A DNA stretch of 57,188 nucleotides from a virus. The DNA is taken from IMG/VR virus record IMGVR_UViG_3300050029_000117, positions 1-57,188 of that record. One strand, written 5' to 3'. The notes below the pieces were generated by a model. That model was not told where the DNA came from and made no database searches. It worked only from the letters and a program-made list of their open reading frames with translations. Positions 2,035 through 30,941 of this stretch are shown here, in pieces. Each line of letters begins with the position of its first letter. The stretch's first letter is position 1. The position numbers were made by a program, and so were the translations under genes.

Positions 2035-2468
2035 CCTTTGAACTCCTTTAGCCACTTACCTATCGTGGTCGGTACGTGAAACTTGTCGGATAGCCACCAT
2101 AGAAACAATAGACCGACTAACGCCCGGTCGGTAAATTGTTTCTTGATGCTATCCCAGAATCTCTGCTGCCTTTTCTCCGCCACATACCGCCCGTCCTCCT
2201 TGGCGTGCCGCAGCTCTATATCTCGCAGCTGCACAAACGCCTGGTCGATATCCGTCTCTAGTTTTATTGACTTGGTGGCATGCTCATCCAGTCGTTGACC
2301 ATGCCCCGCGATAGTGGCACCTTGGTACGCTATGGCCTCCATTGCTATGGCCTGGCGTTCCATAAGTTCATCTTGCCGGTCCATGCGTTTGTCCCACCTG
2401 TCAATGGTCTTGTTGATTGACTCAAGCACTGGGTTCTGGGGGCACTCGGCCACGGTATGAAGTGTCAT
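2031..2468 (-). CDS. coiled-coil protein with a C-terminal transmembrane segment (function unknown; lysis or assembly accessory possible)
   Basis: ATGA overlap with the upstream gene at 2465-2468. The protein has a heptad-like charged core and a C-terminal ALVGLLFLWWL hydrophobic stretch. Confidence 0.45.
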   Translation of the reverse strand: MTLHTVAECPQNPVLESINKTIDRWDKRMDRQDELMERQAIAMEAIAYQGATIAGHGQRLDEHATKSIKLETDIDQAFVQLRDIELRHAKEDGRYVAEKRQQRFWDSIKKQFTDRALVGLLFLWWLSDKFHVPTTIGKWLKEFKG

Positions 2469-2911
2469 AGGTCTGAGGGCTCCTGTATGATGAGTGCCCA
2501 TTTTACTTCGGGCTTATCATACCAGCGGTCATTAAATTGTTTCCGACTGTAACGGTCAATCTTTGCGTTGTACGGGTTAAAAATATGAATCGCTTTGCCT
2601 GCTTTCACAACTACCCCGTAATGTCCTTCGCCACCCCACTGGTATAGCACCATAGCGGGTAGCGGTATATCTCTGATGTCCCGACCTTCATAGATAGAGT
2701 GACTGATACTCACTCTATTCAGGTACGCGGATAGGTTCGACGGCTCAGTGCCCGTTTCGTACTTGGTTTTAAGCTGCTCCTCGGTCGGCATGTAGTCGAT
2801 GGGCCGCGCAACGTGTGGCCACACAAGTATGCTGAAAAGATACCGTAGAGCGAACACTCCACAGGTCGCTTCATTCGACTGGCGGAATGCTAAGAGAGAT
2901 AGATCTTGCAA
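2465..2911 (-). CDS. papain-fold cysteine peptidase, C39-like
   Basis: Q-x5-C (FRQSNEATCGVFAL) is followed by GEGHYGVVVKAGKAIHIFNPYN...SRKQFNDRWYD, the Q/C/H pattern and tail of C39-like peptidase domains. TTG start with GAGG upstream. Confidence 0.55.
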   Translation of the reverse strand: MQDLSLLAFRQSNEATCGVFALRYLFSILVWPHVARPIDYMPTEEQLKTKYETGTEPSNLSAYLNRVSISHSIYEGRDIRDIPLPAMVLYQWGGEGHYGVVVKAGKAIHIFNPYNAKIDRYSRKQFNDRWYDKPEVKWALIIQEPSDL

Positions 2912-3354
2912 AATGTCGCCTCGCGTCCCGAGTCAAACCAGTTCTGGTGAGTGTGAAAAAACTCGCCACCGAATGTCTCGCAGAGATGTGTCATGGCTGG
3001 GTGGGTGCAGTGCGCCGTTACGGCCTCGCACTTACCGGCAATTCGCCCCATCCAGTTAGCCATCAGGATTTTGGTGAGTCCTTTACCTTCAAACTCAGGC
3101 AGAATTGCTGCTGAGTAGAGATAGATGTATTGACCCTCGGAATGATCAACATCCAGTATCTCCTCGTCAAACTCGGTATGCCTAACTCCGTACATCTCAC
3201 CCGCCAGCTTGCCGTCAACCAGCAGCCAGACCGTTATGCAGTTTTTAAGTAGGTCGGTCTTGTCAGTAACATCCAGCCGCAGCTCGGGCTCAAAAATGTC
3301 CTCAAACTGCATAGTGGTGTCAATGGGTAAATCCGTTCTAAATGTGATTTTCAT
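2890..3354 (-). CDS. GNAT-family N-acyltransferase
   Basis: Motif A is present: YLYSAAILPEFEGKGLTKILMANWM (R/Q-x-x-G-x-G/A type acyl-CoA site). ATGA overlap with the ATP-grasp gene. Confidence 0.6.
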   Translation of the reverse strand: MKITFRTDLPIDTTMQFEDIFEPELRLDVTDKTDLLKNCITVWLLVDGKLAGEMYGVRHTEFDEEILDVDHSEGQYIYLYSAAILPEFEGKGLTKILMANWMGRIAGKCEAVTAHCTHPAMTHLCETFGGEFFHTHQNWFDSGREATFCKIYLS

Positions 3355-4913
3355 ATTTCTGCCTTTCCAAAGTTTATTCCGAACTTTTCACCGGCTTCTA
3401 TCTGCTTCTCTGCCTCGTCGAATATGGTCATGTCATGCTCCATATCCTCGGTCTTGACTGTCTCGGCGATTTTCATGGCCTTGTCCGCCGCTTCTTTCCA
3501 CGTCTTGCCAGACGCTGTGACCGCCCCAAAAAATGATCCGTTGCCGGCAGGGATGCAGTGCATCTTACCGCCATGCTGCAAATGGTTCTTCAGCTTGATA
3601 TTGTCCGCATGCTCTTTGGGATAATCCACTACCAGCTCATGCGACTCATGCCACGGCGACCGCAGGATAACCTCTGCGATATACGGGTTGTCCCATTTGA
3701 GGACAGGTAGGACGCCCCCCGCACACAACCAGGCCACCTCAGCGTAATTGACAATGTGCTCACACATGGCCTCGCTGGGCGGACTGGGCGCTCGTTGCGT
3801 CGCGTCGATAAAATAACCTTTGCCGTCCTCGGTAAAAATTATCTCGGTGGATAGGTGCCCGTTATATCCGAGTTTCTTGTAGACACCGGACACGGCTTGA
3901 TTGACTTTATCTATCGCTTCTGGTGTCTCTGCAAATATCTTGCCCAATAATCCACGATCTTTTATTTCGTAGCCGACCAGACAGTTTTTAGTATACTCGC
4001 CGTTCACGCAAAAGCCGTCATAGCCGCCCTCGGCCTTTTTCTTGAGGACATTCTGCACCAATATCTCTATCGTGCGGCTAGCGTGCTCACCGATTCGTTG
4101 CTTCACATCGTTCAGTTTGGCCTCAAAAGCCGTCATATCTCCCGGATACTTCATGGTTTCAAAGTCCTCACGGTAGTACGGAGTCTTGAGCCATTTTGAG
4201 TTTTTACCTCTCAAGTACTCGGCCAGTGGGTCCAGACCCTTGATACGGTGCGTATATGCTACGGGCAAACCACAGTCAACCAATGTCTTGAGGAAATAAT
4301 CTTTATCCAGTTCCATCTTCTCGCTGCGACCCGAGCCGAATACCCGATGCCCCTGTGCCCGCAGATAGACCTGCAGATCACCGTCGTAGCAGTCCGGGAA
4401 AAAGATCAGGTCTGCTTTGGCGACGTACGGCCAAAATGAGTAGACGCGCTCGATCTCGGGGAGACCGGTGCCGATGTCTTTGAAACGTGAGGAGGGGTAG
4501 GGGGCCGACTCGGCCAGGTAAAACCAGACTTTCTTGAACTTCTGACCGAGTTTCTGGGCGAGGAAGATGTAGAGACCTTTGCGCCCATAGACCAGACACG
4601 TCTTATCAGACAGATCCACCGCTTGCGGGTCTTTCTGCTTGATACCCTTGGCAGCAGCATAGATACCGGAGTGTAAACCTTCGGGTGGTACGTCGGTGAG
4701 TTTGGAGTGGACGGCGGGCTCGTGACGTTTTACCCATCCGAGTGCCATTTTGCGGGATAGCCACATACTACCCCCGTTGGGCTGGAAACCGTGGGTCGCA
4801 TCCGGCATACCGGTGGGCAGACCATGCGCCTCAATGATCGTGGCGTGCGAGTCGCTTGGAGTACCTGTTACAATGGTTCCATCCGGTATGCGGACTGCTG
4901 GCAATAAACGCAT
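3351..4913 (-). CDS. ATP-grasp fold ligase with an extra ~95-aa N-terminal domain
   Basis: 520 aa. The C-terminal half shows ATP-grasp-like strands (GGYDGFCVNGEY ... HLSTEIIFTEDGKGYFIDATQRAPSPP). Subfamily is not assignable by eye. Confidence 0.5.
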   Translation of the reverse strand: MRLLPAVRIPDGTIVTGTPSDSHATIIEAHGLPTGMPDATHGFQPNGGSMWLSRKMALGWVKRHEPAVHSKLTDVPPEGLHSGIYAAAKGIKQKDPQAVDLSDKTCLVYGRKGLYIFLAQKLGQKFKKVWFYLAESAPYPSSRFKDIGTGLPEIERVYSFWPYVAKADLIFFPDCYDGDLQVYLRAQGHRVFGSGRSEKMELDKDYFLKTLVDCGLPVAYTHRIKGLDPLAEYLRGKNSKWLKTPYYREDFETMKYPGDMTAFEAKLNDVKQRIGEHASRTIEILVQNVLKKKAEGGYDGFCVNGEYTKNCLVGYEIKDRGLLGKIFAETPEAIDKVNQAVSGVYKKLGYNGHLSTEIIFTEDGKGYFIDATQRAPSPPSEAMCEHIVNYAEVAWLCAGGVLPVLKWDNPYIAEVILRSPWHESHELVVDYPKEHADNIKLKNHLQHGGKMHCIPAGNGSFFGAVTASGKTWKEAADKAMKIAETVKTEDMEHDMTIFDEAEKQIEAGEKFGINFGKAEI

Positions 4914-4914: not shown

Positions 4915-5313
4915 TCACTCCCAGACTAGAAAGTCGAATCTGAATACGAACCTGTTGACTGCTATGTCGAAACCTCTCAGCACTCTCACCTTCACGCCCG
5001 GTGCTTCTGCACTACCACTCAGTGCCATACCGGGTGGCATGTGTATGCTAAAATCTACTTCTAACCCCTCCGGTAGGTTCATCTTGGCTGCGCCCCACTC
5101 TTTCCATACCGAGAGGTTGTCTACCGCTGGTTGTATAAACTTGTTGACAAATTCTGGTATGGACAGTAGTGCAAAATCTTTGTCGCACGGGTCGGATTTG
5201 TTGTTGGAAAGTAGCATTAGACGGGTGGTCATCCTGGGTTTTACGGGGTACTTAGCTAGGTAACAGCGCAGTGCTTCTCTCGCGACTACATCTCCTGAAA
5301 TAGATTTTATCAT
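4915..5313 (-). CDS. 132-aa mini paralog of the major capsid protein (N-arm, spine-helix and C-terminal strand motifs only)
   Basis: DKDFALLSIPEFVNKFIQPAVDNL aligns with MCP DTDLALNIEDFAERILDPAISMI. VKVRVLRGFDIAVNRFVFRFDFLVWE aligns with MCP ISLRILRGFDIINNLYLSRLDILYGY. Confidence 0.55.
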   Translation of the reverse strand: MIKSISGDVVAREALRCYLAKYPVKPRMTTRLMLLSNNKSDPCDKDFALLSIPEFVNKFIQPAVDNLSVWKEWGAAKMNLPEGLEVDFSIHMPPGMALSGSAEAPGVKVRVLRGFDIAVNRFVFRFDFLVWE

Positions 5314-5382: not shown

Positions 5383-5484
5383 ATGTTCTGGCCCGTATTT
5401 GCTACCGTACTGCTTGCTCGTAGACCCGCCGGTTGGTACGTATTATTTATCGTTTACGCGCTTTGCTACTGGTGGACGGCTTAG
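5383..5484 (+). CDS. 33-aa hydrophobic micro-protein (MFWPVFATVLLARRPAGWYVLFIVYALCYWWTA)
   Basis: AAGAGG SD 7 nt upstream and a promoter-like element upstream. It is convergent with and overlaps the 3' end of gene 5447..5797. Below the ORF-track size cutoff. Confidence 0.3.
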   Translation: MFWPVFATVLLARRPAGWYVLFIVYALCYWWTA

Positions 5485-5797
5485 CGATGCCGATAGCTTT
5501 CTTTAAAACGGGCTTTTTGTCAAGTTTTTTCGTCTGTTTGACGGTTAAAACTCGCTCTTTTGCATGGAGCTTGGCCGGACCCGTCTTTTTGACCAATCCA
5601 CCCTTTTTGTACTCCTTCATAGCTTTTTCCGTTTCGCCCTTGCGGTCGAGCATGGCTTTACGGGCATCCGTTCCGGTATCTTCAAACTTGCGCTTTGGAG
5701 CGGGCTTGGCTGGCGGTGTGGCTGCCTTAGCTGCTTTGGTTTCCCCGCCACGGACCGCTATTCCGACACCCTTTTTAAAATCATCCCATGTAGACAT
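5447..5797 (-). CDS. 116-aa Lys/Glu/Thr-rich basic protein (virion-internal or modification-substrate candidate)
   Basis: Strongly Lys-rich composition. N-terminus is MSTWDDFKKGVGIAVRGG-ETKAAK. It lies between the ejection-protein genes and the enzyme cassette. Confidence 0.5.
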   Translation of the reverse strand: MSTWDDFKKGVGIAVRGGETKAAKAATPPAKPAPKRKFEDTGTDARKAMLDRKGETEKAMKEYKKGGLVKKTGPAKLHAKERVLTVKQTKKLDKKPVLKKAIGIAKPSTSSKARKR

Positions 5798-16782: not shown

Positions 16783-18018
16783 TTAAGATAGTGTAGCAGC
16801 ACTGCCTCCGCCCACTTCCACATACCAGATGGTTCCAACAGTCTTAACGACACCAAACGCTTCTTTGACCGCACGCATGACGCCGGGCCAATTTTCCGAG
16901 AAGTCGTGGCCCGCGATTACCCGCTTGGCCTTATCTCGCCAGGCTTCAATATTCGCTTTGCACCCTTCGTAGGTGTGCTCTGCGTCGATAAATACCATGT
17001 CCGCATCTTCAACGCAAGCGGCCATTTCCGAGCTGTTGCCGCGTGCGACCCGCAGGTTGGGGTACTGACCGACATTACGTTGGAACGTCTGAAAAACGTC
17101 CTCTTTTTCAACTATTTCCGACAAAATGCCGTTACTCGACGGGTCGTGGCCGGTCCAATTGTCAACGCATGTGACCATGCCCTTGCAACCCTCCAGCAGT
17201 ACCGTCGCACTGCGCCCTTTCCACGACCCCAGCTCAACCACACTACCCATCCGACCGGCGGTATTAAGCAACCACTCCAACTCTTGGTCGGTCATAAAGC
17301 CGTCGATCACCCGTGCTTTTTGTACGGCGGGTGGGTACTGCGCCTGTTTCTGCATAAACTCATGGAAGTTACCCGAAAATCCTTTGCTACCTTCGTGAAT
17401 GAAATCCACGTTGGGCAAACAGTGCATCTTGCCACCAATTTCCGACCAGAGATGACAGAAACCGTAGTCATCACCATACCACCGGCCCTTCTTGACAAAC
17501 GTACCGAACAGGTCATGGGTCATCAAACCGCTGGCGCAGTCGCGGTACGCAAGTTGCGGGTAAGCGTCCTGCATCTTTTCCAGTACGTGCCGGCGAATCT
17601 TGAGGAAACCTGTGGCCAGACCTTCAGCCAGCAGCACACCATTCTCATTGACCGGATGATGGTTTGCGTCGGTTGCCAGCGACACGGCAAATTCCTCAAC
17701 GGCCTGCTTCTTGGGGTACGCTCCACCAATTACATCCTCGGTGCTGGTAATCAGATCCCGGAATGCTTGCGGTGAGAATCCCAGATCTGCGTCGATAAAT
17801 ACCAGATCGGTGCATTCCGACGCCATAAACCGCCGGACCAAGTTGTTGCGGGCCATGGTCACATAGGGGCATCCGGGCTCAAACTTGAACTCGAAAGGAA
17901 CCTCCATAAGCAGGAGGGCTTGCATGGCGTTCATCAGAGACTGGACGGTGGATACGCATACCTTCTTGTCGTAGCAGGGAATGCCGATAAAGATTTTTAC
18001 TGGGGGTGCTTCAGTCAT
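16783..18018 (-). CDS. bifunctional GT-A-type glycosyltransferase / class I SAM-dependent methyltransferase fusion
   Basis: N-terminal half: IGIPCYDKK...ARNNLV...LVFIDADLGF, with a DxD. C-terminal half: GFMTDQELEWLLN...VVELGSWKGRSATVLL...VFIDAEHTYEGC...IAGHDF, a Methyltransf_24/TylF-like pattern. Confidence 0.6.
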   Translation of the reverse strand: MTEAPPVKIFIGIPCYDKKVCVSTVQSLMNAMQALLLMEVPFEFKFEPGCPYVTMARNNLVRRFMASECTDLVFIDADLGFSPQAFRDLITSTEDVIGGAYPKKQAVEEFAVSLATDANHHPVNENGVLLAEGLATGFLKIRRHVLEKMQDAYPQLAYRDCASGLMTHDLFGTFVKKGRWYGDDYGFCHLWSEIGGKMHCLPNVDFIHEGSKGFSGNFHEFMQKQAQYPPAVQKARVIDGFMTDQELEWLLNTAGRMGSVVELGSWKGRSATVLLEGCKGMVTCVDNWTGHDPSSNGILSEIVEKEDVFQTFQRNVGQYPNLRVARGNSSEMAACVEDADMVFIDAEHTYEGCKANIEAWRDKAKRVIAGHDFSENWPGVMRAVKEAFGVVKTVGTIWYVEVGGGSAATLS

Positions 18019-19817: not shown

Positions 19818-21065
19818 TTATTTAGTTATACGGCAAGCAAGCTGCGGACGGCAGGCCAGATACCCATACAGAATATCCAGACGGCTCAGGTACAGGTTGT
19901 TGATGATGTCGAATCCGCGCAAGATACGCAGACTGATACCTTCAGATACTTCCCTGTAGCACATATCCATACCCTTTGGCAAGGTCATATCGCCGGTTAC
20001 GAAAGTAAAGGCGTCTTTGTGGTACGCGAGGTTCTGACCGTAGCTGGTCGAAGCAGCACCAACAAACACGACGGAGCCTGCAACGCCGCTGGTTGGGCTG
20101 GCGGTCACATTGGCATAGGGGTTCTGTGCAGCCGGGGCGGCGACAACCGGAATGATTGCTGGGCTGATGTTCAAGACCACGTTACCGTTGGCATCAGCGG
20201 TGTATACACCTGTTGCTCCGGCATCAGCTGTAGCAACAAACTGCTGAAGCGCACCAAAAGTCACCTTTGTGTCAGGGTGGACTTTATTGGAGCCAGCCAG
20301 GGTGAACACCGTACCCTGTGTGATGGTCGCACCTGCGGTGAATCCACCCAGACTGATGGTACTACCGATCTGATTGGGGCCGTTGACGAATACGTTGGCG
20401 CTACCGGCCATCGTACCAGTGGTGTGGACAGGAGCCAGCTCATTCTCGTAGAAGTCGAAGTTACTGGCGCGACCCATAGCCCCTTCCAGGAACTGATCGG
20501 AAATCTCGTCACGTGGGTTGAAAAAGTTGGTCATACCGTTGACCAGCGACGCCGAGGTTACAGAGTCAACCTGGACCTTACGGCCCTTACCTTTGGGCGC
20601 GAGGCTCTGGTTAAGCAGAGTCTTGGCATTCAGGAAAGGCAGGATACCGGCAGGAGTTACGCCTGCGGTACCGGTCAGCTGGTACACATCCTTGAACATG
20701 CCAAAGGCGTCATTCTCGATGTTGGCCACAATCATGGAGATTGCGGGATCAAGAATACGCTCGGCAAAATCCTCGATGTTAAGGGCCAGATCGGTATCGC
20801 TGAAATCCATATCAGCACCGCCGATATTAGCGAGTACCAGGACCACGTTGGTTTCGTTGGTGGCCTGCATGTTGGCAACCGGCCCACGGCGGAAATTGTA
20901 CTGGTTGGGCAACCGGATTTTCAGTTGGTTGCCGATTTTGGCGTTTTCCTGGCCGAACTGATCATCGTATTGACGGCCAATGGTGCCTAGAAACGTGCTC
21001 TTGTTGTGAAGGACTGCGAGCGCCTTACGGGTTATTTTTATATCTGTCAAAAAATTTGAACTCAC
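19818..21065 (-). CDS. major capsid protein (P22 coat-like HK97 fold)
   Basis: 415 aa with a GTG start and AAGGAGAG SD. Lies after the scaffold gene. The C-terminal ...RILRGFDIINNLYLSRLDILYGY and N-terminal motifs are typical of P22-type coat proteins. Confidence 0.75.
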   Translation of the reverse strand: MSSNFLTDIKITRKALAVLHNKSTFLGTIGRQYDDQFGQENAKIGNQLKIRLPNQYNFRRGPVANMQATNETNVVLVLANIGGADMDFSDTDLALNIEDFAERILDPAISMIVANIENDAFGMFKDVYQLTGTAGVTPAGILPFLNAKTLLNQSLAPKGKGRKVQVDSVTSASLVNGMTNFFNPRDEISDQFLEGAMGRASNFDFYENELAPVHTTGTMAGSANVFVNGPNQIGSTISLGGFTAGATITQGTVFTLAGSNKVHPDTKVTFGALQQFVATADAGATGVYTADANGNVVLNISPAIIPVVAAPAAQNPYANVTASPTSGVAGSVVFVGAASTSYGQNLAYHKDAFTFVTGDMTLPKGMDMCYREVSEGISLRILRGFDIINNLYLSRLDILYGYLACRPQLACRITK

Positions 21066-21080: not shown

Positions 21081-21995
21081 TTACCTCCTGAAACTGGCCT
21101 CACGCATCTCCCTGATCACATCTGCTGCCGGTCGCTTATCGTCATCTACTTCGATTGCGCCCCGTGTGGTTACCGGTGTGATCGGTGGTGGTGCGCTACT
21201 GACCTGTCTAACAGGGGTGCTTTTATTTAATGTGCTTTCAAGTTTGACCAGCTCGCGCATTGCTGCTACGGCGCCGAGTCGTGCGATACGTGCAGTATCC
21301 TGCTTGTTGTTGTAGAGGTGGCGCAAGAGTTCCGGGCCGACCTCAGATTCCAAAATTGCTTCCTGCATGATCCCGTTAAGGGGTAGCTGGTACTGACCGG
21401 GCTGATGCCAATTATCGGCAATATCCTGTAGCTCGGGGTCCAGCTCGGCGGCTTTTTCCAACCGCTTCAAGTACTCGGTGTGCTTCTGAGCCTGTGTCTG
21501 CTGCTCGGTCTGCTGGTGCGACTCCTGTTTCAAGTCGTATTTCACCTTGGCCGTCACATACTCGTCTCGCTTCGCCTGGTACTCGCGGTTGAGCCGCTTC
21601 TGCGCTTTTTCGTACTCGCTGTAGTCGTCAAAATCTGTAGAGTCCAGATCGTCCGGTTCAGTCGGTGGTTGCGGCGGACCGGCTGGCTTTACTGGCTCGG
21701 GTGGTGTCGGTACTCCTGGGGCTTTACCCCCCGCTTCCGCTACACCTTTCCAATACGCTGCCTCTTCCTTCGCTTCCTGCCGTCTCTTCCGTTCACCCTC
21801 AAGTGCGGTGAGTGGGACCATTGTGGCTGGTGGTGGGTCTGCCTGGGGCGGGTCTGCCGCTGCCGGGGGGTCTACCTGTGCGGGGTCAGCCGCTGGTGGA
21901 TCAACCTGGGGCGGGTCTGCCGCTGCCGGGGGGTCTGTTACAACCACTTCACCTCTGTTGCCTGCGAGTAATTCAAAGAGCTTCATGTTACACAT
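21081..21995 (-). CDS. scaffolding protein (putative)
   Basis: Lies directly upstream of the MCP gene. Acidic and helical, with an N-terminal (A)DPPQ(V/A)DPPAA repeats encoded by ~32-bp direct DNA repeats at about 21840-21934. Confidence 0.5.
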   Translation of the reverse strand: MCNMKLFELLAGNRGEVVVTDPPAAADPPQVDPPAADPAQVDPPAAADPPQADPPPATMVPLTALEGERKRRQEAKEEAAYWKGVAEAGGKAPGVPTPPEPVKPAGPPQPPTEPDDLDSTDFDDYSEYEKAQKRLNREYQAKRDEYVTAKVKYDLKQESHQQTEQQTQAQKHTEYLKRLEKAAELDPELQDIADNWHQPGQYQLPLNGIMQEAILESEVGPELLRHLYNNKQDTARIARLGAVAAMRELVKLESTLNKSTPVRQVSSAPPPITPVTTRGAIEVDDDKRPAADVIREMREASFRR

Positions 21996-22137: not shown

Positions 22138-23940
22138 TTACTGCCTCCATACCGCTATCCGTCCAAATTTCAGTGTTAGCGTTTTTGAGTTGGTTATCGC
22201 CCCATCAGCGCGTACATACATTTGTAATGTTGCTGCTGAGATGGTTGTGGCTGATGCTGGTATTGTTAATATCGGGGTTCGTAGGTGCAGCACTTTGTCG
22301 GCATTTATCGAAACAGCGGTAGCCTCGTATCCCTCGATAGCACGGGTACTGAGTGACGCACCGTCAACCGTGGCGCGGAGGTCAAAAAATAGTTCCGTTA
22401 CTGGTGTATCCACCCAACTCGTAGAACTAATAAATACTTCTACTTCGGCATAATATGACCCACCCACTACCATGCGAGGCAAAAGTGTTGTGGTACTGCC
22501 ATATCCCTGGATACCTATCAAATTGCCCGATGCCATAGCAGTAACATCAATCTGCTGTACGTTGCCATACCCCGATGGATGTGCCGTAACAGAGCAGACC
22601 GCCGTGGGGGTCCCGGAAATTGCGCCAGCCCCTAATTCCCCCGCTACAACGCCGGTTGCTGTCCCTGACAGCGATCCGCCGGTTGCCGTGGCGAGTACGG
22701 GGTTGTTAAATATATTTTTGCTGCGACCCGCCTTGATCGTTCCGGTTGCTGCACCATCTGCACCAGCGGCAGCAAATGTGAATGTATCGGCCGCCGCTGT
22801 CGCCACCACAAAAACATTATTCAGGTCGGCTGGTGTAGCTCCAGTTACAGCGAATTGTTCACCCGCTCGAAAACCGTGTGCCGTGGCGGTTGCTGTGACA
22901 ATTCCCGATGTTCGGCTGAGTGTTACAGTGATTGATGAGTTTGCAAAACAATTGGTAGTTGACACAGGGCGCGTATCGGATTCGGTGGGTGCTATCGTGG
23001 CAACTATAGCGGCAACGGTGGCACCTATTCCACTGGCGGCAATTACACTGTAGTGGATTTTGTCCGCGATTTTGAAGTTGGTCGCAGTAGCAAGACCCGT
23101 TGTATCTGTGGGGTTCACAGTTCTACGGAACGCGTCAACATAGTAAAAACCGGCGTTGTCCTTGTAATTATCGTATATACGCTTGTTGAGGGTTTGTACC
23201 CTCTGCATATTTTGAACCGTTGCCCGCGCTTCCCCGGATGCCACAGGTGTCGCTGATACCAGGATAAGTTTTGATCCACTTCCTAGAATGCGAGTAATAA
23301 TTTTGCACATGGAGGTGTAAGTGGTTTCCTCGTCAATCGGACCATTTGATACGCTCTGGTCGTTAATTGTAGGACTCTGCATTAAAACAAGTTGCGGCTG
23401 GTACGCCATAACATCCGCTTCCAGCCTTGCCAGCACATCAACAGACGTATCCCCTGATTGAGCGCCATTTGATACGATATTCAGGGGGTAAGATCTCAGT
23501 ATCTGCACCCAATTCACCCACGAATGCCCACTCCTGCGGTGTGAATAACGGGTGAAGCATGTTCCAGGGACAGTGCCGTTTGGGATGTCCCGTGGAATGT
23601 CCGGCAGTAGCACGGTGTATGTATTATCATCAACTCGTGTAGCAATGAGATTTCGATGTTTTTTAATGCTGGGGTAATTCCGGTGCCAGATGGTCACATT
23701 CGCGCCGGTCCATAATTTATGGCCCGTTTCTACCACCGTAAGCACGCCTGTTGCGTTGTTGTAGGTGAATGACGTGGGAGCGCCAACCACGTCCCACCAA
23801 TCCGTCATTGAATCACCACAAAGTACGGTCCGCAAGCCCGTGGACCCACTAGGCCCTCTCACTCCTTGCCCACCACCAAACCCAAACGCCCACGCATTCC
23901 CCGCCCACAAACACATTGCTATAATCAGTAATCGCCTCAC
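22138..23940 (-). CDS. secreted-type SGNH/GDSL hydrolase (esterase/deacetylase) with C-terminal beta-rich binding domains
   Basis: GTG start. Signal peptide MRRLLIIAMCLWAGNAWA. GDS block VLCGDSMTDWW, and DKIHYS as a DxxH block. The C-terminal region resembles fibre or carbohydrate-binding modules. Confidence 0.55.
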   Translation of the reverse strand: MRRLLIIAMCLWAGNAWAFGFGGGQGVRGPSGSTGLRTVLCGDSMTDWWDVVGAPTSFTYNNATGVLTVVETGHKLWTGANVTIWHRNYPSIKKHRNLIATRVDDNTYTVLLPDIPRDIPNGTVPGTCFTRYSHRRSGHSWVNWVQILRSYPLNIVSNGAQSGDTSVDVLARLEADVMAYQPQLVLMQSPTINDQSVSNGPIDEETTYTSMCKIITRILGSGSKLILVSATPVASGEARATVQNMQRVQTLNKRIYDNYKDNAGFYYVDAFRRTVNPTDTTGLATATNFKIADKIHYSVIAASGIGATVAAIVATIAPTESDTRPVSTTNCFANSSITVTLSRTSGIVTATATAHGFRAGEQFAVTGATPADLNNVFVVATAAADTFTFAAAGADGAATGTIKAGRSKNIFNNPVLATATGGSLSGTATGVVAGELGAGAISGTPTAVCSVTAHPSGYGNVQQIDVTAMASGNLIGIQGYGSTTTLLPRMVVGGSYYAEVEVFISSTSWVDTPVTELFFDLRATVDGASLSTRAIEGYEATAVSINADKVLHLRTPILTIPASATTISAATLQMYVRADGAITNSKTLTLKFGRIAVWRQ

Positions 23941-24663: not shown

Positions 24664-27012
24664 CTACCCTCCGATCTGTGGTTGCGGTGCCTCCACCGCA
24701 TGCAGCTCTTGCAGAGTTTTAAGGATCTCCGACCTGATACCCGCCTCGGACTCTTTAATCTCTTTGTACAGCTCAATCATTTTTACTTTGGCCTGCAGCA
24801 GGGCGACCTGTTCCTTGGCCTGGGCTGTCCGTTCTCGCGCGGCCTCGGTCTTGCCCTTCTGCATGAGAACCTGGATCTGTGGTGGTACAGGCGGCACGTA
24901 CGGTTTTTCACCCTCGCGCAACTCGACCAGGCCCGGCGGCATGGTACGACGTGCGCGGCTGGCCATGCGGTCGGCATCCTTGAAGTCCATGTTTTCAAAG
25001 AATATATCATCATACTTGGCCATACCCTGTGGGTTATTCTGCCGCATACCCGCCAGCATCTGCGCCGTCTCCTGGCGCTGAGTCGCGTAACTCGGGCCGA
25101 CGGTCACAACTACGTCGTACTTGCCGACGGTGATATCGTTGAACTTGGCACCTTTGCCGTGCTTCTGGATCAGCTCTACTAGCCGTGTGGTGTTCATACC
25201 CTTGTAGCGGTCAGGGTTGTTACGCATGGTTTTAGCTGCCGTCTCCGCAGACGTGTTGATGGGCACAATGGCCTCGGTATCATCCACGTTGCGGAGACGA
25301 ACATCACGCTCGGAGTCGTACACCTCGGGTATCATTGCATTGGCAATTTTTCCCGAGTGCTCGATGGCCCGATTTAAGTTGTAGGCGTAGACATAGGTGC
25401 TGACATCGCCAGGGCGTTGTTTTGCTGTGACTGCCGGCGCGGACCGCTCGGGTCCGACCTCACCCACGTCTCCGCCGAACATGCCGAGGACCGCTTTGAG
25501 GTTGTCGTGCGCCCGCTGGACTTGGTTGAACAGCGCGACGGGCGGTTGGCCCGGTGACTGCCGAATGGGTGGCGGCAGCAGTTGCCCGTTATCCCCGATG
25601 ACTGCGTTATACTTGAGAACCGCAAAATTCTTGGTGTTGGCGGTCAGGTAGTCATTCTCGTACCCCTCGATCTGTTCACCAGTAGCCAACCACGGTGACT
25701 TGGGAGCCAGGGCGATTATCTCAGCAAGGGCCGTCTCATAGTAGTTGACCAGGCGTTGGGCGTCTTTGATGTCTTTGATCAGTCCCTTGCGAAATATCTT
25801 GCCCTCAATGTTGAGCGTCGGGCCGCTGACCTCCACGATGGGGATGTACTTACCCGGCACCGGCTCACCGCCCAGCAGCGTGTCGGCGTCCAGATCATCC
25901 TCTTTACGGTACTCTTCCCAGGCATCTTTACGCGGGGGCAGAATCTCGTTCATGGTGATGGTATAGTGCCTGATACGATTGACCGGCGTGGTACGTTGGG
26001 CAGTAATCTTGGGCCGGGGTGGCATGCTGGGTGTAGCAGGCGGCGCAGCGGGTGCCCCCTGTGGTGGTGCAGCACCGCCCGCCGCTTGGGGTGGTGCCCC
26101 TTGAGGTGGCATAGCGCCGGGAACTGGTGCGGCGGGCGGTGCTTGGGGTGGCATACCCTGAGTGGGCGGCCCCTGTGAGGGACCGGCCTGGATGTCCTCG
26201 ACTCGCTCTTTATACAGAGCTTCCCAGCTGGCAATCAGTTCTTTAGCGTCGTCCTCGGGGAGCACTGTACCATCTTCCAACTGGCAAAATGTCTGCTTTT
26301 CCGGTTTGACGATGAAGTATTCTGCCACGGTGATCGTGTCGTTATCATACCAGATCTCGTTACGAGCACCCTGTAGCGCGGGCATTTTATCCGGTCGTTT
26401 GGCGTTGGGCCAGTACTCCTCGAAATCTTCCTTGAGCATCTTGCTCAGGACAAACCCGTACTGGCTATCGGCACCGGCGGCGTCCTTGCGCTTACTGTCC
26501 GTGTAAACCATGAAAGCGTTGGGTATCAGTTCTTTATAGATCTCTTGGAGGAATGGATTATCTTCGCAGTACCGGGTACCGACGCGCCACGCACCATAGC
26601 CACATGACACCTGCATCTTGCCCGCTTCCAGGTAGATGTCCTCAGCGTTGCTGATATACTCGGTATTGGAGATGATGCCGGCGCGGATCTTGGCGATGTG
26701 GGGGTCTGCTTTGGAGTCAACCGGTTTGATGCTGACACGCGCCCGGTTATGGAGCATGTCACCGACTACCTGGGCGGTAAATTTGTGAAACAGTGGGATT
26801 TCAAGGCAGGGTCTGCCGTCTTTGGTGCGGTCGTCTTTATCTTTGGTGGGCCACTGGTTGCCCGGCACCGTGAACATCAGGCACTCGATAGCTTCCCGGC
26901 GGTTGTCGGCTTCCTGCTTGATCTCAAATTCGAGGCGTTTCTTGGCCTTAGCCAGAAACTTGTCAATGGCCTCCTGCTGAGACTCTTTTTTCTTCTTGTC
27001 CTCTTTAGCCAT
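24664..27012 (-). CDS. portal protein (P22-like) with an internal ~60-aa Pro/Ala/Gln-rich insertion
   Basis: 782 aa, lying after TerL. N-terminal ...RREAIECLMFTVPGNQW...DGRPCLEIPLFHKFTAQVVGD...VSIKPVD pattern is typical of portals. Confidence 0.75.
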   Translation of the reverse strand: MAKEDKKKKESQQEAIDKFLAKAKKRLEFEIKQEADNRREAIECLMFTVPGNQWPTKDKDDRTKDGRPCLEIPLFHKFTAQVVGDMLHNRARVSIKPVDSKADPHIAKIRAGIISNTEYISNAEDIYLEAGKMQVSCGYGAWRVGTRYCEDNPFLQEIYKELIPNAFMVYTDSKRKDAAGADSQYGFVLSKMLKEDFEEYWPNAKRPDKMPALQGARNEIWYDNDTITVAEYFIVKPEKQTFCQLEDGTVLPEDDAKELIASWEALYKERVEDIQAGPSQGPPTQGMPPQAPPAAPVPGAMPPQGAPPQAAGGAAPPQGAPAAPPATPSMPPRPKITAQRTTPVNRIRHYTITMNEILPPRKDAWEEYRKEDDLDADTLLGGEPVPGKYIPIVEVSGPTLNIEGKIFRKGLIKDIKDAQRLVNYYETALAEIIALAPKSPWLATGEQIEGYENDYLTANTKNFAVLKYNAVIGDNGQLLPPPIRQSPGQPPVALFNQVQRAHDNLKAVLGMFGGDVGEVGPERSAPAVTAKQRPGDVSTYVYAYNLNRAIEHSGKIANAMIPEVYDSERDVRLRNVDDTEAIVPINTSAETAAKTMRNNPDRYKGMNTTRLVELIQKHGKGAKFNDITVGKYDVVVTVGPSYATQRQETAQMLAGMRQNNPQGMAKYDDIFFENMDFKDADRMASRARRTMPPGLVELREGEKPYVPPVPPQIQVLMQKGKTEAARERTAQAKEQVALLQAKVKMIELYKEIKESEAGIRSEILKTLQELHAVEAPQPQIGG

Positions 27013-27058
27013 TGGCTCCCCGATTGGTCGGGCACTTAGTCATATGCGGTTGCGGATA

Positions 27059-27087
27059 GTATTATTGAGATATTATTATAATGTCAA
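27059..27087 (-). promoter_or_regulatory. sigma70-type promoter TTGACA-17 nt-TAATAC upstream of the portal gene
   Basis: Minus-strand TTGACA (27087-27082), a 17-nt AT-rich spacer, and TAATAC (27064-27059). Confidence 0.45.
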
Positions 27088-27371
27088 GTAATTTCTATTC
27101 GCTCCAGCGCGGTACGGGCTACCTGTTTCAATTTAGTTTCTCTTCCAGCAGGCAGGGGCAATGAAAAATCCGGTCTGGCGATCTGTTCCAACGCCTCCCG
27201 ATACTTTAGCTCTCTGCCGACTGCATCCGCGACATCTTGGTAACAACCAGCCAACTGTACCCGCAGTTGCTCTATCTCGCCCGTCAGCCTTTCGTTGCGG
27301 CAAAATGGGCAGTAGTTATGCACTGTAGACCCAAAATCGTGTGTGAAACACTCATACGTTATTTTGCTCAT
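27084..27371 (-). CDS. 95-aa zinc-finger/coiled-coil protein
   Basis: C-x3-H...C-x2-C near the N-terminus. ATGA overlap with the TerL stop. Confidence 0.45.
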   Translation of the reverse strand: MSKITYECFTHDFGSTVHNYCPFCRNERLTGEIEQLRVQLAGCYQDVADAVGRELKYREALEQIARPDFSLPLPAGRETKLKQVARTALERIEIT

Positions 27372-29047
27372 CGGTCCACCCTCCTCGCAGCCATCATATT
27401 GGTCACACTTACTCGCGGTTTATCCCCGCTGCTGGTGAAGCGGTACGTTTTGATAATGTCGTAGGCGTAGGCCCACATGTTGATAATATCAGGATGATAG
27501 AAAGGAAATAGGTCCATCTCTGACGTGAGTTTTTGCCGTTTTTCCGCATTAATTGCTGTGCTGATAAACAACTTTCGATTACAAAGCGGCCACTGTAGCG
27601 CAGCCTCCACACGCTCCTCGGTATTGCGCCCCGCCGGTCGCAGCAGTATCAGTGTCTTGGTTTCCTCACTGATACGCCGACCGTGGACCTTCAGAGCGTC
27701 CCGGATGTGGATCTCGGTGGTGGACAGGCCAACCTTTTCCACCCCGATAGCTCGGATAAATCCACCGTCCAGATACATACGAATGATGGTGTCAATCGCC
27801 TCAGCATGGGTCATCTGGTCCGCCTCAAACTCCTCCAGGTAGCAGTTGGATGATCCTATGTCGTCCAATTGCGGCTTAACCGAGATCAGGCCGATTGACC
27901 ACATATCACCCTTACGGGCGCCCTTGGCCTGGGTGTCCTTACCGCCGGCTTGGTCGATGATCAGGAATTTGTAGCGGTCTTTCGGCAGGAATGCCGGGTC
28001 GATGCTTTGCAGCAGTCGAGAATCCAACGCCACGATGTCCGTGGGTGTCGGCTGGCAGAGCTGCTGCGCGTCGAAGAACTTGCTGGTCATCAGCTTTTCC
28101 AGTCGCTCCTGACTCAGCAGCACGGGCCGGCCGGTGCGGGTACCGTCGTGAGTGGCCGGCTTGATGACCGTCTTGTACATGGACTCGCCGTGGATATCCT
28201 TCTTATCCCGGATGCGGACCAGCGGGCCTATGTGGCTGTAGTACGTGCCGACGATGTTTTCCGTGCCGGTGTTGGTGCCCAGGTTGTCCGACATCTCAAA
28301 AGCGTGAAAGCAGAGATCCATCTGGTCCGGGCTCTTAGCGATATCGAAGGTCTCCACGTCATCGTACATGCGGTGGTCGTAGTGGCCCCCGGTCGGCATA
28401 CCCTCGATCAGTCCGAATGCTTCCACCGTGTTCTCTTTACGACTGACCGACTTCCGTTTGACTCGGATGCCGTGCTGTAACGACCAGCTGGGGCTCTCGG
28501 TATCCGGGTTGTTGTAGAGGATGTCTGGGAAACAGGCGATCATCATTTCTTTTTCAAGAGTCTCCCGGATAGAGACCAGGAATTTATCAGCGGCTGGTTT
28601 TTTATAGGAAAATATGGCGTTGGTGCAGTCCGGGTTGTTCATAATCCGCTTGATTGTCAGACCGATGGACATGCTCACAGACTTGAAATGCTCACGCGCC
28701 CAGATCTGGAGGGTGCGGGTCATGCTCAATCCGCCGTCCGGTGTGCTGGCCTCCAGCTCATTGCAGGCGGTCACAGGAAACACCTCATTGGCAGGCGGTA
28801 CGTCCATGATGAAGTAGACAATGAAAAATAAGTCAGTCATTACCAGCTTACGGATGACGGACTTGCAGTACTGCTCTCTCTCGGGTGCGGGGTAGTTTGC
28901 CATCTGCTGGAAAATAGCCAGATAGTCATGGGCGTAGTAGGTGTCCCACGGTGGGTTATCCGGGTCGCAGCCGTCCATGTCGGCCATGTAGACCGACTTG
29001 CGGGGCGCGATACGCGGGTGGGGCGTGAATTTTGGCAGCTGTTGCAT
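27368..29047 (-). CDS. terL: terminase large subunit
   Basis: 559 aa, lying upstream of the portal gene. Shows an N-terminal ATPase-like region and a C-terminal nuclease-like region (LIIDQAGG..., AIGVEKVG...). Confidence 0.75.
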   Translation of the reverse strand: MQQLPKFTPHPRIAPRKSVYMADMDGCDPDNPPWDTYYAHDYLAIFQQMANYPAPEREQYCKSVIRKLVMTDLFFIVYFIMDVPPANEVFPVTACNELEASTPDGGLSMTRTLQIWAREHFKSVSMSIGLTIKRIMNNPDCTNAIFSYKKPAADKFLVSIRETLEKEMMIACFPDILYNNPDTESPSWSLQHGIRVKRKSVSRKENTVEAFGLIEGMPTGGHYDHRMYDDVETFDIAKSPDQMDLCFHAFEMSDNLGTNTGTENIVGTYYSHIGPLVRIRDKKDIHGESMYKTVIKPATHDGTRTGRPVLLSQERLEKLMTSKFFDAQQLCQPTPTDIVALDSRLLQSIDPAFLPKDRYKFLIIDQAGGKDTQAKGARKGDMWSIGLISVKPQLDDIGSSNCYLEEFEADQMTHAEAIDTIIRMYLDGGFIRAIGVEKVGLSTTEIHIRDALKVHGRRISEETKTLILLRPAGRNTEERVEAALQWPLCNRKLFISTAINAEKRQKLTSEMDLFPFYHPDIINMWAYAYDIIKTYRFTSSGDKPRVSVTNMMAARRVDR

Positions 29048-29451
29048 CAGTAATCCGAGATACCAACCGAAAATCTAAACTGACACTCGTTGAGCGCGAC
29101 ACCAAAAGTACACAACATCCTGACACTCAGGCCGTCATACACCTCAATGTGCTTTGCTATACCTTCGCCCCCCGCCGGCAGCTCTAACATCGTAAATCGT
29201 ACGGGGCTTTTAAAATTACCCTCCAATAGTCCACACAACTCCGATACTTTGGGCCGGATATACTTGTTTGAGAACTCGTCAAAATTCAGTTTCATATCTT
29301 CCGACGGCACATTCACATACACGTCGAATACCCGCGCCTGCCCCATCGGAGAATGTGCCAGACACTCCAGTCGAGGAAAAGCCGCCATGTAGTTACAGAA
29401 AATCATCAAAAATTTTCGTATTATCTGCGTATGCGACAACTGCGTTGCCAT
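29047..29451 (-). CDS. 134-aa mini paralog of the major capsid protein, in the slot usually occupied by a small terminase subunit
   Basis: FDEFSNKYIRPKVSEL and LSVRMLCTFGVALNECQFRFSVGISDY align with the 4915..5313 product and with the MCP spine-helix and C-terminal motifs. Confidence 0.45.
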   Translation of the reverse strand: MATQLSHTQIIRKFLMIFCNYMAAFPRLECLAHSPMGQARVFDVYVNVPSEDMKLNFDEFSNKYIRPKVSELCGLLEGNFKSPVRFTMLELPAGGEGIAKHIEVYDGLSVRMLCTFGVALNECQFRFSVGISDY

Positions 29452-29575
29452 GTCGTACCTCCTAAGTTAAGCGGGTGGGGGCAGTCGCCATGCTCTGACG
29501 ATACCGCGCCATGGCCGTGGCTTGGACGTTTACGAGCTGCGCGTCCTGCGTACCCACCCTATCGTTACCACACTC

Positions 29576-29881
29576 CTACTTGGTTTTCAATGCCGCATGT
29601 GCGATGTCGTACATTCTGCCGTCCTGTGGGAAGTTACTACCATACTCCCCGGCTGCAGTAATTTCCTCCAACGCTTCCCGCAGCCGTTCATTTTCCTGCC
29701 GAAGTCTGATGTGCTCGCAAGCGCTAAACGACGATTGTATCCGGGCACATTCGTTTCGCAGCTCGTCAATCTCAGCCTGCCGGGCTTTCCACGCGGTGAG
29801 TGCTATGACTATCGGTATCCCATCAAAATGCGTTTTGTCTTCTTTATCCCACCACTCTGTAAATGTCTGGCTCATACCCAC
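29576..29881 (-). CDS. 101-aa coiled-coil hypothetical protein
   Basis: ORF with a 10-nt overlap with the upstream gene. Confidence 0.4.
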   Translation of the reverse strand: MGMSQTFTEWWDKEDKTHFDGIPIVIALTAWKARQAEIDELRNECARIQSSFSACEHIRLRQENERLREALEEITAAGEYGSNFPQDGRMYDIAHAALKTK

Positions 29882-30174
29882 ACCTTCATTCCTTTGTCCA
29901 GCGCGTGCGTCGGCTCACCCAGCTTGCGGCAGTCTGCCGGTGTGGCGCCCGGCATGTGCTCCGACACGTACACCCAGAGTAGCGCAGTCAGTGCAGCATG
30001 CACCGCTGGTATGTTACGCTCCAGGACGCACGTGTCGGTCAGTATCCGCCAGTCGTCCGCTACGCAGATCTCTACCCGGCAATGATACTCTCGGGTCGCC
30101 GGATCTTGCACGGACAGTCGCCGGGTGAGTGCGTTGAATTGCTTGCGAGTCAGCACGACTTGCTCCGTTCCCAT
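29872..30174 (-). CDS. 100-aa hypothetical protein
   Basis: ORF within a tightly packed early block. Confidence 0.4.
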   Translation of the reverse strand: MGTEQVVLTRKQFNALTRRLSVQDPATREYHCRVEICVADDWRILTDTCVLERNIPAVHAALTALLWVYVSEHMPGATPADCRKLGEPTHALDKGMKVWV

Positions 30175-30338
30175 TGATCACGGGTTATACCGGTCCTGTG
30201 GGTAAACCCGTCTTGCTCCAGGCTTAACTTTTCCAGTACAATCGTAGCAACTTTCTCTGCCCCGCCCGATCCACTCACTGCGATCTTTACGCTACCCGTT
30301 TTATCATCCATCACTATCTCTATGGTCGCAGTGCTCAT
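30150..30338 (-). CDS. 62-aa hypothetical protein
   Basis: ATGA-coupled to the upstream micro-ORF. Confidence 0.4.
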   Translation of the reverse strand: MSTATIEIVMDDKTGSVKIAVSGSGGAEKVATIVLEKLSLEQDGFTHRTGITRDQWERSKSC

Positions 30339-30475
30339 ACCAGCCTGCTGGCCCTGAGTATCGCGGCTTTGCGGCGTGCTTGGCAGTCGGCCAGTTTCTC
30401 CGCAAAATACCGATCCACGTAACCGGTGAACGCTGTGTGTGGCGCGTCATACCATCTTGCCTCGGTGAGTGTCAC
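30335..30475 (-). CDS. 46-aa hypothetical protein (GTG start)
   Basis: GTGA overlap with the upstream stop, AGGAGA SD, and an ATGA overlap downstream. Below the ORF-track cutoff. Confidence 0.35.
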   Translation of the reverse strand: MTLTEARWYDAPHTAFTGYVDRYFAEKLADCQARRKAAILRASRLV

Positions 30476-30639
30476 TGTCGTCTCCTATCTCGGCGGGCGC
30501 GTGCTACGTCCTTGCCGATCTGGTCAAATGTGCGTTGTGGCGGTGCCCAGATGTCGCAGGGCTTGCCGCATTCGGAACAGCGAGTGGTGCCGCCGCATGT
30601 AGCTACCTGCATGTGACAGCAGTCTGAGAGCTGGCTCAT
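30472..30639 (-). CDS. 55-aa zinc-ribbon micro-protein
   Basis: ATGA overlap at 30636-30639. MSQLSDCCHMQVATCGGTTRCSECGKPCD..., with Cys pairs. Confidence 0.4.
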   Translation of the reverse strand: MSQLSDCCHMQVATCGGTTRCSECGKPCDIWAPPQRTFDQIGKDVARARRDRRRQ

Positions 30640-30941
30640 GGTGTCTCCACCGCAGCAATATCACCCTGCCGCATGATTCTGACATCATAATCCCACGGCA
30701 GTCTGGCTCTGCCCGCCTCGATCTCGTACCACACGCGGTCGCCGGTAGTCACATCCATAGGCAGTATCTCGCCCTGCTTGGTGCGCTTGCCGGGGCCGGT
30801 CTGCTCCACGATGCCCTGAATGACCGTGCCGGGGCGTTTATTGGGGTTGTCCACCTGCAGTATCACTGCCGAGTCGGGTGGTGCGGGTAGCTCTCGGACG
30901 GCTACCCAGTCTGAGGTGAGCGCGTATGCCTGTGGTGTCAT
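30636..30941 (-). CDS. GroES/Cpn10-like co-chaperonin (putative)
   Basis: Aligns by eye with GroES: DWVAVREL...SAVIL...G(T)V(I)..G.G......GE..PMDV..GDRV.Y......DIAAV. Confidence 0.45.
   Translation of the reverse strand: MTPQAYALTSDWVAVRELPAPPDSAVILQVDNPNKRPGTVIQGIVEQTGPGKRTKQGEILPMDVTTGDRVWYEIEAGRARLPWDYDVRIMRQGDIAAVETP

Follow-up and report, generated by a model that had tools for sequence, protein, structure and literature searches.

Small proteins of uncultured tailed phages very likely derived from the N-arm and P-domain of the P22-type coat protein

The DNA analysed here, referred to as the window, is a 57-kb (57,188-nucleotide), roughly genome-sized contig of an uncultured tailed phage. 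The genes of the head module, on the minus strand, follow the order Cpn10, small ORFs, mini-MCP B, large terminase (TerL), portal, a 600-aa lipase-like protein, scaffold, and coat. The coat gene is followed by connector, tail, and ejection genes, the gene for a 1197-aa protein, a Lys-rich 116-aa ORF, mini-MCP A, and the gene for a 520-aa protein, to which no known family was assigned. The major capsid protein (MCP; positions 19818 to 21065, minus strand; 415 aa) is of the P22 type and contains an I-domain-like insertion (Pfam PF11651, E 2.5e-24, 86 bits; PHROG 283); its sequence matches in the PDB are the CUS-3 coat, the Sf6 coat, and the CUS-3 I-domain. The same strand encodes a scaffolding protein of 304 aa (21081 to 21995; PHROG 8865), a P22-type portal (24664 to 27012; Pfam PF16510, E 2.8e-129), TerL (27368 to 29047; PHROG 38, E 4.5e-18), and a phage GroES-like co-chaperonin, Cpn10 (30636 to 30941; Pfam PF00166, E 1.3e-7). 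The Lys-rich ORF (5447 to 5797, minus strand), taken from the ORF list, lies directly upstream of A. Megablast of 20 kb of the window against deposited phages returned no nucleotide match, and the nearest deposited portals are only 31–35% identical to that of the window. One close relative, a 56.9-kb contig (loci L001, L003, and L005), is present in IMG/VR; comparison of the two phages finds the scaffold C-terminus (...DDDKRPAADVIREMREAS[F/Y]RR) near-identical.

Mini-MCP A (4915 to 5313, minus strand; 132 aa) and mini-MCP B (29047 to 29451, minus strand; 134 aa), a second, divergent member that is 25% identical to A, belong to a group of small proteins that we refer to as minis. The ATG of A, at 5313, has AAAGGTAGG in front of it, and its stop codon lies 1 nt ahead of the ATG of the gene for the 520-aa protein. 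The ATG of B, at 29451, is preceded by a perfect AGGAGG 6 nt upstream, and the stop codon of B overlaps the start codon of TerL (TGATG). This signal favours the 134-aa form of B, with the N-arm helix, rather than the 119-aa gene called in the database. Given these good ribosome-binding sites and the coupling to downstream genes, A and B are very probably translated.

A third ORF, C (31105 to 31395, minus strand; 96 aa; pI 10.4 for the whole protein), has a Shine-Dalgarno sequence, GGAGGTG, and carries the P-loop hairpin motif of the MCP and the minis (VRFLRAFDIMSNTFILRADVMIG) at residues 12–34, followed by a basic tail. It matches the MCP in BLASTP (E 1e-5), and an HMM of 17 minis over the last 23 positions only (E 2e-4); no counterpart was found in the close relative. 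Judged by these matches, C would be a partial relative of the minis and not a full member. A frameshifted full-length mini composed of the ORF at 31392–31631 and C was considered and rejected, as the upstream ORF is unmatched by the family HMM. Scans for promoters and terminators around A, B, and C gave no excess over the shuffled expectation.

A sequence-only reading of the window had proposed that the products of A and B align with each other and with three separate MCP segments, and that both are MCP-derived proteins made of the N-arm and P-domain. The first alignment is significant (BLASTP, E 3e-6, 29% identity over 85 aa). Pairwise comparison with the MCP bears out only part of the second: the match of A to the MCP C-terminus is significant (E 1e-7, 39% over 38 aa), whereas the spine-helix segment pair of A by itself (E 7.1) and the comparison of B with the MCP (E 0.097) are not. 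In a phmmer search with A of the 759 six-frame segments of the window, only the MCP, B, and C fell below E 0.1.

At the profile level, all three segments stand. A profile HMM was built from four minis, namely A and B together with B′ and X of the close relative. Among 1877 six-frame ORFs, it matched three different P22-type MCPs (E 5e-8 to 3e-7), one of which shares only 37% identity with the MCP of the window, through collinear stretches corresponding to the N-arm, the spine helix, and the C-terminal strands. The same profile was then run with HMMER exhaustively against 1.84 billion representative proteins (1.84e9; cut-off E ≤ 1e-3), which returned 55 matches: 17 small proteins of 95–188 aa, 13 of them minis additional to the four in the profile, and 38 proteins of approximately 290–430 aa, three of which are fragments. 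The larger proteins are matched in two or three collinear stretches, with profile positions 45–85 aligned to residues ~83–125 and positions 91–132 to residues ~345–400. All 27 of those scanned belong to Pfam PF11651 (P22_CoatProtein). Thus, apart from minis, this search found P22-type coat proteins only (best E 1.5e-6). An HMM of the 17 minis matches P22-type MCPs with E-values of 8e-23 to 6e-16; it also scores A at 8e-40 and B at 6e-33, values that are inflated since both proteins are in the HMM.

Segment-wise comparison leads to the same result. When an alignment of 17 minis (A3) was compared by hhalign with an alignment of 25 coat proteins (A4), the probability was 98.5% for the whole alignment. 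For the individual segments, it was 79.7% for the N-arm alone (E 1.5e-5; mini 2–20 against MCP 3–21), 97.6% for the start of the spine helix (E 2.7e-12; mini 41–66 against MCP 87–111), and 99% for the C-terminal P-domain strands (E 5.4e-18; mini 82–132 against MCP 350–407), E-values that are somewhat flattering because the coat sequences in A4 were chosen among matches of the mini profile. The database-wide HMMER search is free of this selection bias and constitutes the unbiased test. The profile comparisons thus indicate that A and B are homologous to each other and to three collinear segments of the MCP. The minis are no closer to the resident MCP than to distant P22-type coat proteins, which argues for an old family and not for recent duplicates.

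The domain limits of P22 gp5 (PMC9965877) make it possible to specify what the minis keep and what they lose. In gp5, the N-arm comprises residues 2–30, the F-loop 34–50, and the E-loop 51–78; the P-domain is formed by residues 31–33, 79–127, and 358–416, the A-domain by 128–221, 346–357, and 417–430, and the I-domain by 222–345. The coat profile aligns to the solved structures of P22 gp5 (102–420) and Sf6 gp5 (10–415), and the three segments kept in the minis map to the N-arm and P-domain of P22 gp5. In the profile alignment of minis and MCP, residues 22–86 are skipped in part and residues 112–349 are skipped. The earlier proposal that the E-loop and A-domain had been deleted is thus borne out and has to be extended: the minis also lack the F-loop, the I-domain, and the distal half of the spine helix. 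Minis end a few residues past the P-loop hairpin, at the point where the coat chain would re-enter the A-domain.

The conserved motifs of the family are collinear: an I-x-R/K-x-x-L helix, LSLxEFSxR/KxLxP, and, at the C-terminus, LPxG...VRxxRxYDI...RFDxL. The full hairpin motif in the minis is VRxxRxYDIxxDxxxxRFDxL, and its R-x-Y-D-I core is the best conserved stretch common to minis and MCPs. Like the P22-type coat proteins (PF11651; P22 gp5, Sf6 gp5, and CUS-3), the minis have a homologous N-arm helix, the beginning of the spine helix (LSLDEFSxRxLxPA), and, at the C-terminus, P-domain strands that include the P-loop (LPxG...VRxxRxYDIxxDxxxxRxDxL), and they share the invariant residues of the coat alignment, P107, P363, R380, R395, and D397 in the numbering of the window MCP. 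Unlike these proteins, they are approximately 130 rather than 415 aa long, evolve far faster, and have no obvious way to form capsomers.

Structure prediction is consistent with the assignment. The AlphaFold2 model of A, computed from a 17-sequence alignment and superseding an earlier model from a 4-sequence alignment (pLDDT 70), is compact and confident (pLDDT 86, pTM 0.82), and all five models are concordant, with scores of 84–86. It consists of a helix (7–21), a strand (29–35), two helices (44–49 and 52–65), and four strands (70–74, 98–104, 107–116, and 121–130), i.e., two long helices and one sheet in the order H-E-H-H-E-E-E-E. Compared with a published description of the HK97 fold (PMC5701804), this order is, as far as the model goes, supported as that expected of an N-arm helix, the first half of a spine helix, and a P-domain sheet with its P-loop. 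Structure prediction had been suggested beforehand as a check of the idea, and the confident model agrees with it. A mini is therefore predicted to be likely an autonomous fold.

Foldseek searches were run with both models of A against the PDB, and with the second model also against BFVD. There was no significant match. Weak local matches to HK97-fold MCPs over the last 40–50 residues comprised Douge gp8 (probability 0.72–0.77, rmsd 2.6–2.8 Å, 40–42 columns), Sf6 gp5, and P22 (8i1v) in the PDB, and an entry named 'Major capsid protein Gp5' in BFVD (probability 0.91); one small uncharacterised phage protein was also returned (E 0.011). Neither a terminase nor any other competing fold appeared in the PDB or BFVD. 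Because Foldseek aligns locally and cannot bridge the 240-residue deletion, these searches neither confirm nor refute the fold.

The minis do not fall into a known family. Pfam, PHROGs, NCBIfam, and PADLOC contained nothing that credibly matched A, B, or C; in Pfam, none of the three reached E ≤ 0.1 with any entry, PF11651 included, and the mini profile matched no sequence in the PDB even at E ≤ 10. The second check suggested beforehand, a search for assignment to a non-capsid family, thus turned up none in these four libraries or among the PDB sequences. The minis are not members of PF11651: they have no Pfam match and no E-loop or A-domain, yet they are homologous to this family in the N-arm, spine helix, and P-domain strands. 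The literature searched, on truncated MCP paralogs, MCP decoys, and phage GroES proteins occurring with P22 coat, describes no such protein; the sequence-only reading, which knew of no described equivalent, agrees with this and with the library searches.

About 20 members were found, all of them metagenomic (ENA, NCBI MAG projects, JGI, and Logan), with two or three divergent copies per genome. Deposited phages in INPHARED yielded no mini in tblastn with A, B, P0007, and P0023, the last of which matched only coat genes. Word-indexed protein searches with minis returned almost only the query phages, and pattern scans of genome and metagenome contigs gave no further mini loci. Twelve viral-contig loci picked up by the P0005+P0017 pattern were rejected; they encode an unrelated helical protein that shares QWTDIEY (HMM E > 1).

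These results bear on the most sceptical explanation, that the similarity is due to chance or that the minis are functionless, decaying gene fragments. B compared with the MCP alone is not significant pairwise, and C does look like a fragment. Against this stand the database-wide significance, the existence of approximately 20 intact members, which come from unrelated samples and share conserved core positions, the strong Shine-Dalgarno sequences and gene coupling, and the confident, compact predicted fold. We consider this explanation extremely improbable. Very likely, A and B represent a family of small proteins, found in tailed phages, that derived from a P22-type coat gene whose F-loop, E-loop, A-domain, I-domain, and distal spine helix were lost, leaving a self-contained domain of 95–190 aa; the MCP family of the window would be the parental one. 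Where enough of the surrounding DNA is available, most of these phages have P22-type head genes.

The common theme of the genomic contexts is the head or late gene block of phages with a P22-type portal and coat. The window has Cpn10, three ORFs, B, and TerL, with A far downstream; the close relative has Cpn10, X, one ORF, B′, and TerL, and no counterpart of A was found in it. The order is TerL, two ORFs, Cpn10, mini, portal, scaffold, and coat at locus L010; mini, Cpn10, one ORF, and portal at L011; TerL, several ORFs, mini, one ORF, and portal at L008; TerL and mini at L006/7; and portal, homing endonuclease, one ORF, and mini at L012. At L017, an A-like mini, the closest relative of A, follows an adaptor-like gene and precedes one ORF and a Phage_stabilise gene. 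Overall, six of ten independent contexts belong to a head module, as indicated by an adjoining TerL, portal, Cpn10, or adaptor gene. A P22-type coat or portal gene accompanies the mini in the window, the relative, L008, L010, L011, and L012; only TerL (L006/7) or the adaptor-like and Phage_stabilise genes (L017) lie beside it at two further loci; and the DNA fetched for L014–L016, L018, and L019 has no coat gene.

Some other positions lie outside the head module. At L018, a mini with a hydrophobic N-terminus follows a DNA polymerase A gene and a 397-aa ORF. At L014–16, a Tat-like mini lies directly upstream of, and overlaps, a gene for an Rv2525c-like glycoside hydrolase (endolysin-like). The Tat-like subgroup (P0023, P0030, P0031, P0054, and P0056–58), which excludes A and B, shows the motif SRRGFLxxLLAAPAIV; P0056 scores 14.1 bits against the twin-arginine signal TIGR01409, for which the cutoff is 16.7. 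Cpn10 recurs near or next to minis in four independent phages (the window, the relative, L010, and L011). In the Xanthomonas phage PBR31, the operon opens with the same series of genes (GroES, a TerS-like gene, TerL, portal, scaffold, and coat), but there is no mini; since Cpn10 heads the late operon there too, the link between Cpn10 and minis may be positional.

The position of B is that of a small terminase (TerS), as the sequence-only reading had pointed out. This observation holds for B in the window and for B′ in the relative, both directly upstream of TerL and, in B, with a 1-nt overlap; it does not hold as a property of the family, in which the order TerL, mini, portal also occurs. A, X, P0005, P0007, P0023, P0050, P0006, P0009, and the Tat-like group are all located elsewhere than directly upstream of TerL, and in three other phages (L006/L007, L008, and L010) the mini is downstream of it. 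That B and B′ might be unconventional small terminases is suggested further by the fact that no conventional TerS was recognised among the window ORFs scanned, either by a search for the GNPxGRP motif or by family scans of the neighbouring ORFs, and by phage PBR31, where the corresponding place, between GroES and TerL, is taken by a TerS-like gene of 101 aa. Several features contradict this explanation: B is homologous to the coat-protein N-arm and P-domain; no TerS family is matched in Pfam, PHROGs, or NCBIfam; the AlphaFold2 model of A contains no helix-turn-helix with an oligomerisation core, and Foldseek retrieved no terminase from the PDB or BFVD; the pI of minis varies between 4.6 and 9.8, and no basic surface is conserved; and there are several mini copies per genome. 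In our opinion, it is very improbable that B is a terminase subunit, and a small-terminase role of the minis as a group is unlikely.

Between the window and the close relative, identity is 82% for the MCP, 78% for the 520-aa protein, 76% for the portal, 67% for TerL, 61% for the scaffold, and 51% for Cpn10. The corresponding values for minis are 27–28% for B and X, 19% for B and B′, and 24% for A and B′, with the paralog X, and not B′, being the best match of B in the relative. Judging from these identities, the minis diverge far faster than their neighbours. In addition, the homolog of the Lys-rich ORF that lies beside A in the window is located upstream of Cpn10 in the relative, which suggests that the block carrying this ORF was relocated or shuffled.

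The best explanation overall, to which we subscribe tentatively, is that the coat-derived minis act as modulators of capsid assembly. In P22 procapsids, the C-terminal helix-loop-helix of the scaffold contacts residues D14, E15, E18, and N4 of the coat N-arm as well as R101, where the spine helix begins (PMC9965877). More generally, the N-arm helix, resting on the spine helix, is the binding site of scaffold C-termini and of SaPI1 CpmB, and the three-fold contacts are organised by P-loops (PMC12749128). Inspection of alignment A3 by eye shows a basic residue, Arg or Lys, in most minis at the spine-helix position that corresponds, within one residue, to P22 R101. If the predicted fold is correct, the minis would keep the scaffold-docking surface (N-arm and spine helix) and the three-fold surface (P-loop), and would be devoid of the A-domain and E-loop, the surfaces that build capsomers. 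Because the former surfaces are kept and the latter lost, minis should bind a partner of the MCP, either the scaffold C-terminus or the three-fold or P-domain edge of coat subunits, without polymerising; the scaffolding protein encoded in the window is the putative partner. They would be products of the late operon, probably in small amounts, the coupling of B to TerL being the one pointer to this, and might escort or titrate the scaffold, or cap or seed lattice edges near the portal. This specific version, in which non-polymerising mimics bind scaffold or coat edges and so tune assembly, is a possibility that we advance with somewhat more hesitation than the general one.

Several observations argue against a role in assembly. 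The minis diverge far faster than their proposed partners (19–28% identity for B, compared with 82% for the MCP, 61% for the scaffold, whose C-terminus is near-identical, and 67% for TerL), the counterpart of A is missing from the close relative, and Foldseek gave no significant HK97-fold match. Moreover, the gene positions vary, including one after a DNA polymerase gene and one directly before an endolysin-like gene, and some members have N-terminal hydrophobic or Tat-like segments; in these two respects, a mini resembles an accessory or conflict gene more than a core assembly factor.

Because of this divergence, a role in conflict is almost as likely as assembly modulation, though doubtful in itself: the minis may be coat mimics that serve as decoys for a host factor that recognises the coat N-arm or P-domain, or as dominant-negative poisons of capsid assembly in co-infecting phages or satellites that have P22-type coats. 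The contrast between 19–28% identity in minis and 50–82% in flanking genes speaks for such a role, as does the occurrence of two or three divergent minis in one genome, with presence and position differing between two phages whose MCPs are 82% identical. The family is also rare and patchy among P22-type phages, being absent from PBR31 despite the same operon layout, and it includes membrane- or Tat-like variants and some positions outside the head module. Most copies, however, lie in the late head operon, with B coupled to TerL, whereas early expression would be expected of a decoy that counters sensing. A coat-like fragment could just as well set off a sensor as block one, and neither a credible PADLOC match nor a known anti-defence family was found.

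The conserved P-loop allows for yet another explanation, that the minis are minor structural components, either cement or decoration proteins at three-fold sites or fillers at the portal vertex, attached through the P-loop and N-arm. Consistent with it, R-x-Y-D-I is the part best conserved between minis and MCPs, structural gene blocks contain A and the mini closest to it (L017), and the portal gene adjoins several minis. Sequence constraint on the minis is low compared with the MCP, however; in contexts that include the MCP gene, they are never adjacent to it, unlike many decoration genes; and A is missing in the close relative even though the MCPs are 82% identical. We regard a structural role as improbable, more so than either assembly modulation or conflict.

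Assembly modulation and conflict may share one mechanism. In what would be a new principle of molecular mimicry in phage biology, a phage would keep separate copies of the module of its own coat protein that docks the scaffold and makes the three-fold contacts. As non-polymerising molecular mimics, minis could steer the nucleation and size of the phage's own procapsids, poison rival phages or satellites, or blind host factors that recognise coat. We offer this combined explanation with rather low confidence; it would account for the fast divergence, the changes in copy number, and the membrane-targeted variants.

It is instructive to compare the minis with known systems. The T4 vertex protein gp24 and SaPIbov5 Ccm are full-length additional MCP paralogs that have the whole HK97 fold and become capsomers. 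They resemble the minis in being encoded by a second capsid-derived gene beside the main MCP gene, and theirs acts in head formation; minis, in contrast, keep less than one-third of the HK97 fold. Small terminases are similar to the minis in size, and B and B′ also occupy the place immediately before TerL, their stop codons overlapping its start; the minis differ in their MCP ancestry, in having neither a family match nor a DNA-binding fold, and in being found downstream of TerL in other phages. T4 gp31 is a GroES-like co-chaperonin of a phage, and the Cpn10 of the window (PF00166) shares only its neighbourhood with the minis, the protein being unrelated. The scaffold C-termini of P22 and 80alpha, and SaPI1 CpmB, would share the N-arm/spine-helix interface with minis and could likewise shift assembly at a low dose (PMC12749128; PMC9965877). 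However, these proteins are ligands of the docking site, whereas minis copy the site itself, and there is no sequence relationship between the two.

The P22-type coat protein is the known family nearest to the minis, and full-length MCP paralogs are the nearest known kind; a stand-alone version of the N-arm and P-domain turned up in none of the libraries or literature searched. The homology is solid and would, we believe, surprise capsid specialists; the family is rare, all of its members come from uncultured phages, and its function is one that we infer. The HK97 fold is the universal building block of the shells of tailed phages, herpesviruses, and encapsulins, and is normally treated as indivisible. 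One of its sub-modules, the N-arm with the P-domain, appears to fold and persist alone in several phage lineages. If minis do bind scaffold or coat, they would be a natural reagent for dissecting docking and three-fold contacts in the control of nucleation and size, and a template for designed assembly inhibitors and for cargo-loading tags of P22-type nanocages. If they function in conflict, they would represent a new class of mimicry factor. The minis also bear on the idea of an HK97 fold built up from smaller modules.

The late operon in the window's group of P22-type phages is headed by a phage-encoded Cpn10/GroES-like gene, found at 30636-30941 (-) in the window, at 4209-4562 of L001 (a locus of the 56.9-kb close relative), and in three further loci (L010 790-1137, L011 911-1282 and L013 6891-7214). 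In four phages of this group the gene is adjoined by a mini, i.e., a member of the small protein family derived from the major capsid protein (MCP); Xanthomonas phage PBR31 carries the Cpn10/GroES-like gene without a mini. A weak ribbon-helix-helix ORF (30938-31108, -) and an HNH endonuclease gene (32057-32587, -) are situated upstream of the window's head operon, and no recognisable small terminase turned up in 27000-33500 (-).

ORF C (31105-31395, -), which encodes 96 aa and has a good SD sequence, opens with 23 residues that copy the P-loop hairpin motif of the MCP and the minis and continues into a basic tail, the pI of the whole protein being 10.4. Its make-up looks like that of a chimera, or else of a remnant of a third mini, and the close relative has no equivalent of it. 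The same genome also lacks a counterpart of the 600-aa lipase-like protein (22138-23940, -; PHROG 6102) inserted between portal and scaffold. A 411-aa protein (16783-18018, -; PHROG 2675), encoded inside the structural gene block, is DNA-methyltransferase-like in its C-terminal half.

Mini A (4915-5313, -) is coupled to the gene for a 520-aa protein that has no family match and is 78% identical in the close relative. Two genes follow it, one (2890-3354, -) encoding a GNAT-like acetyltransferase and the other (2465-2911, -) a Peptidase_C39-like protein, and both are missing from the close relative; 2465-4913 (-) holds an enzyme cluster placed after the structural genes. A Lys-rich ORF of 116 aa (5447-5797, -) is located directly upstream of A, whereas its homolog in the close relative (L001 3457-3810) is upstream of Cpn10. 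This difference in siting suggests that a small block has changed place from one genome to the other.

Most closely related to A (38%) is the protein of locus L017 (P0006), the 95-aa database gene call of which is truncated: the ORF at 573-971 reaches further upstream, yielding 132 aa that include a complete N-arm helix. Of the minis, P0009 (L018 7303-7794) is the one sampled most widely (12 contigs), and it has a hydrophobic N-terminal segment. Its gene is outside any head module, at the end of a replication block: a DNA polymerase A gene lies two genes upstream of it, and convergent genes come after it.

In one subgroup of minis (P0023, P0030, P0031, P0054 and P0056-P0058; loci L008, L014-L016 and L019), the N-terminus bears a twin-arginine-like segment, SRRGFLxxLLAAPAIV...MPVK, which is strongly conserved and scores slightly under the TIGR01409 cutoff. 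In L014-L016, the gene of the twin-arginine-like mini overlaps the start of a gene for an Rv2525c-like glycoside hydrolase (PF08924), and its place there is a position typical of lysis genes.
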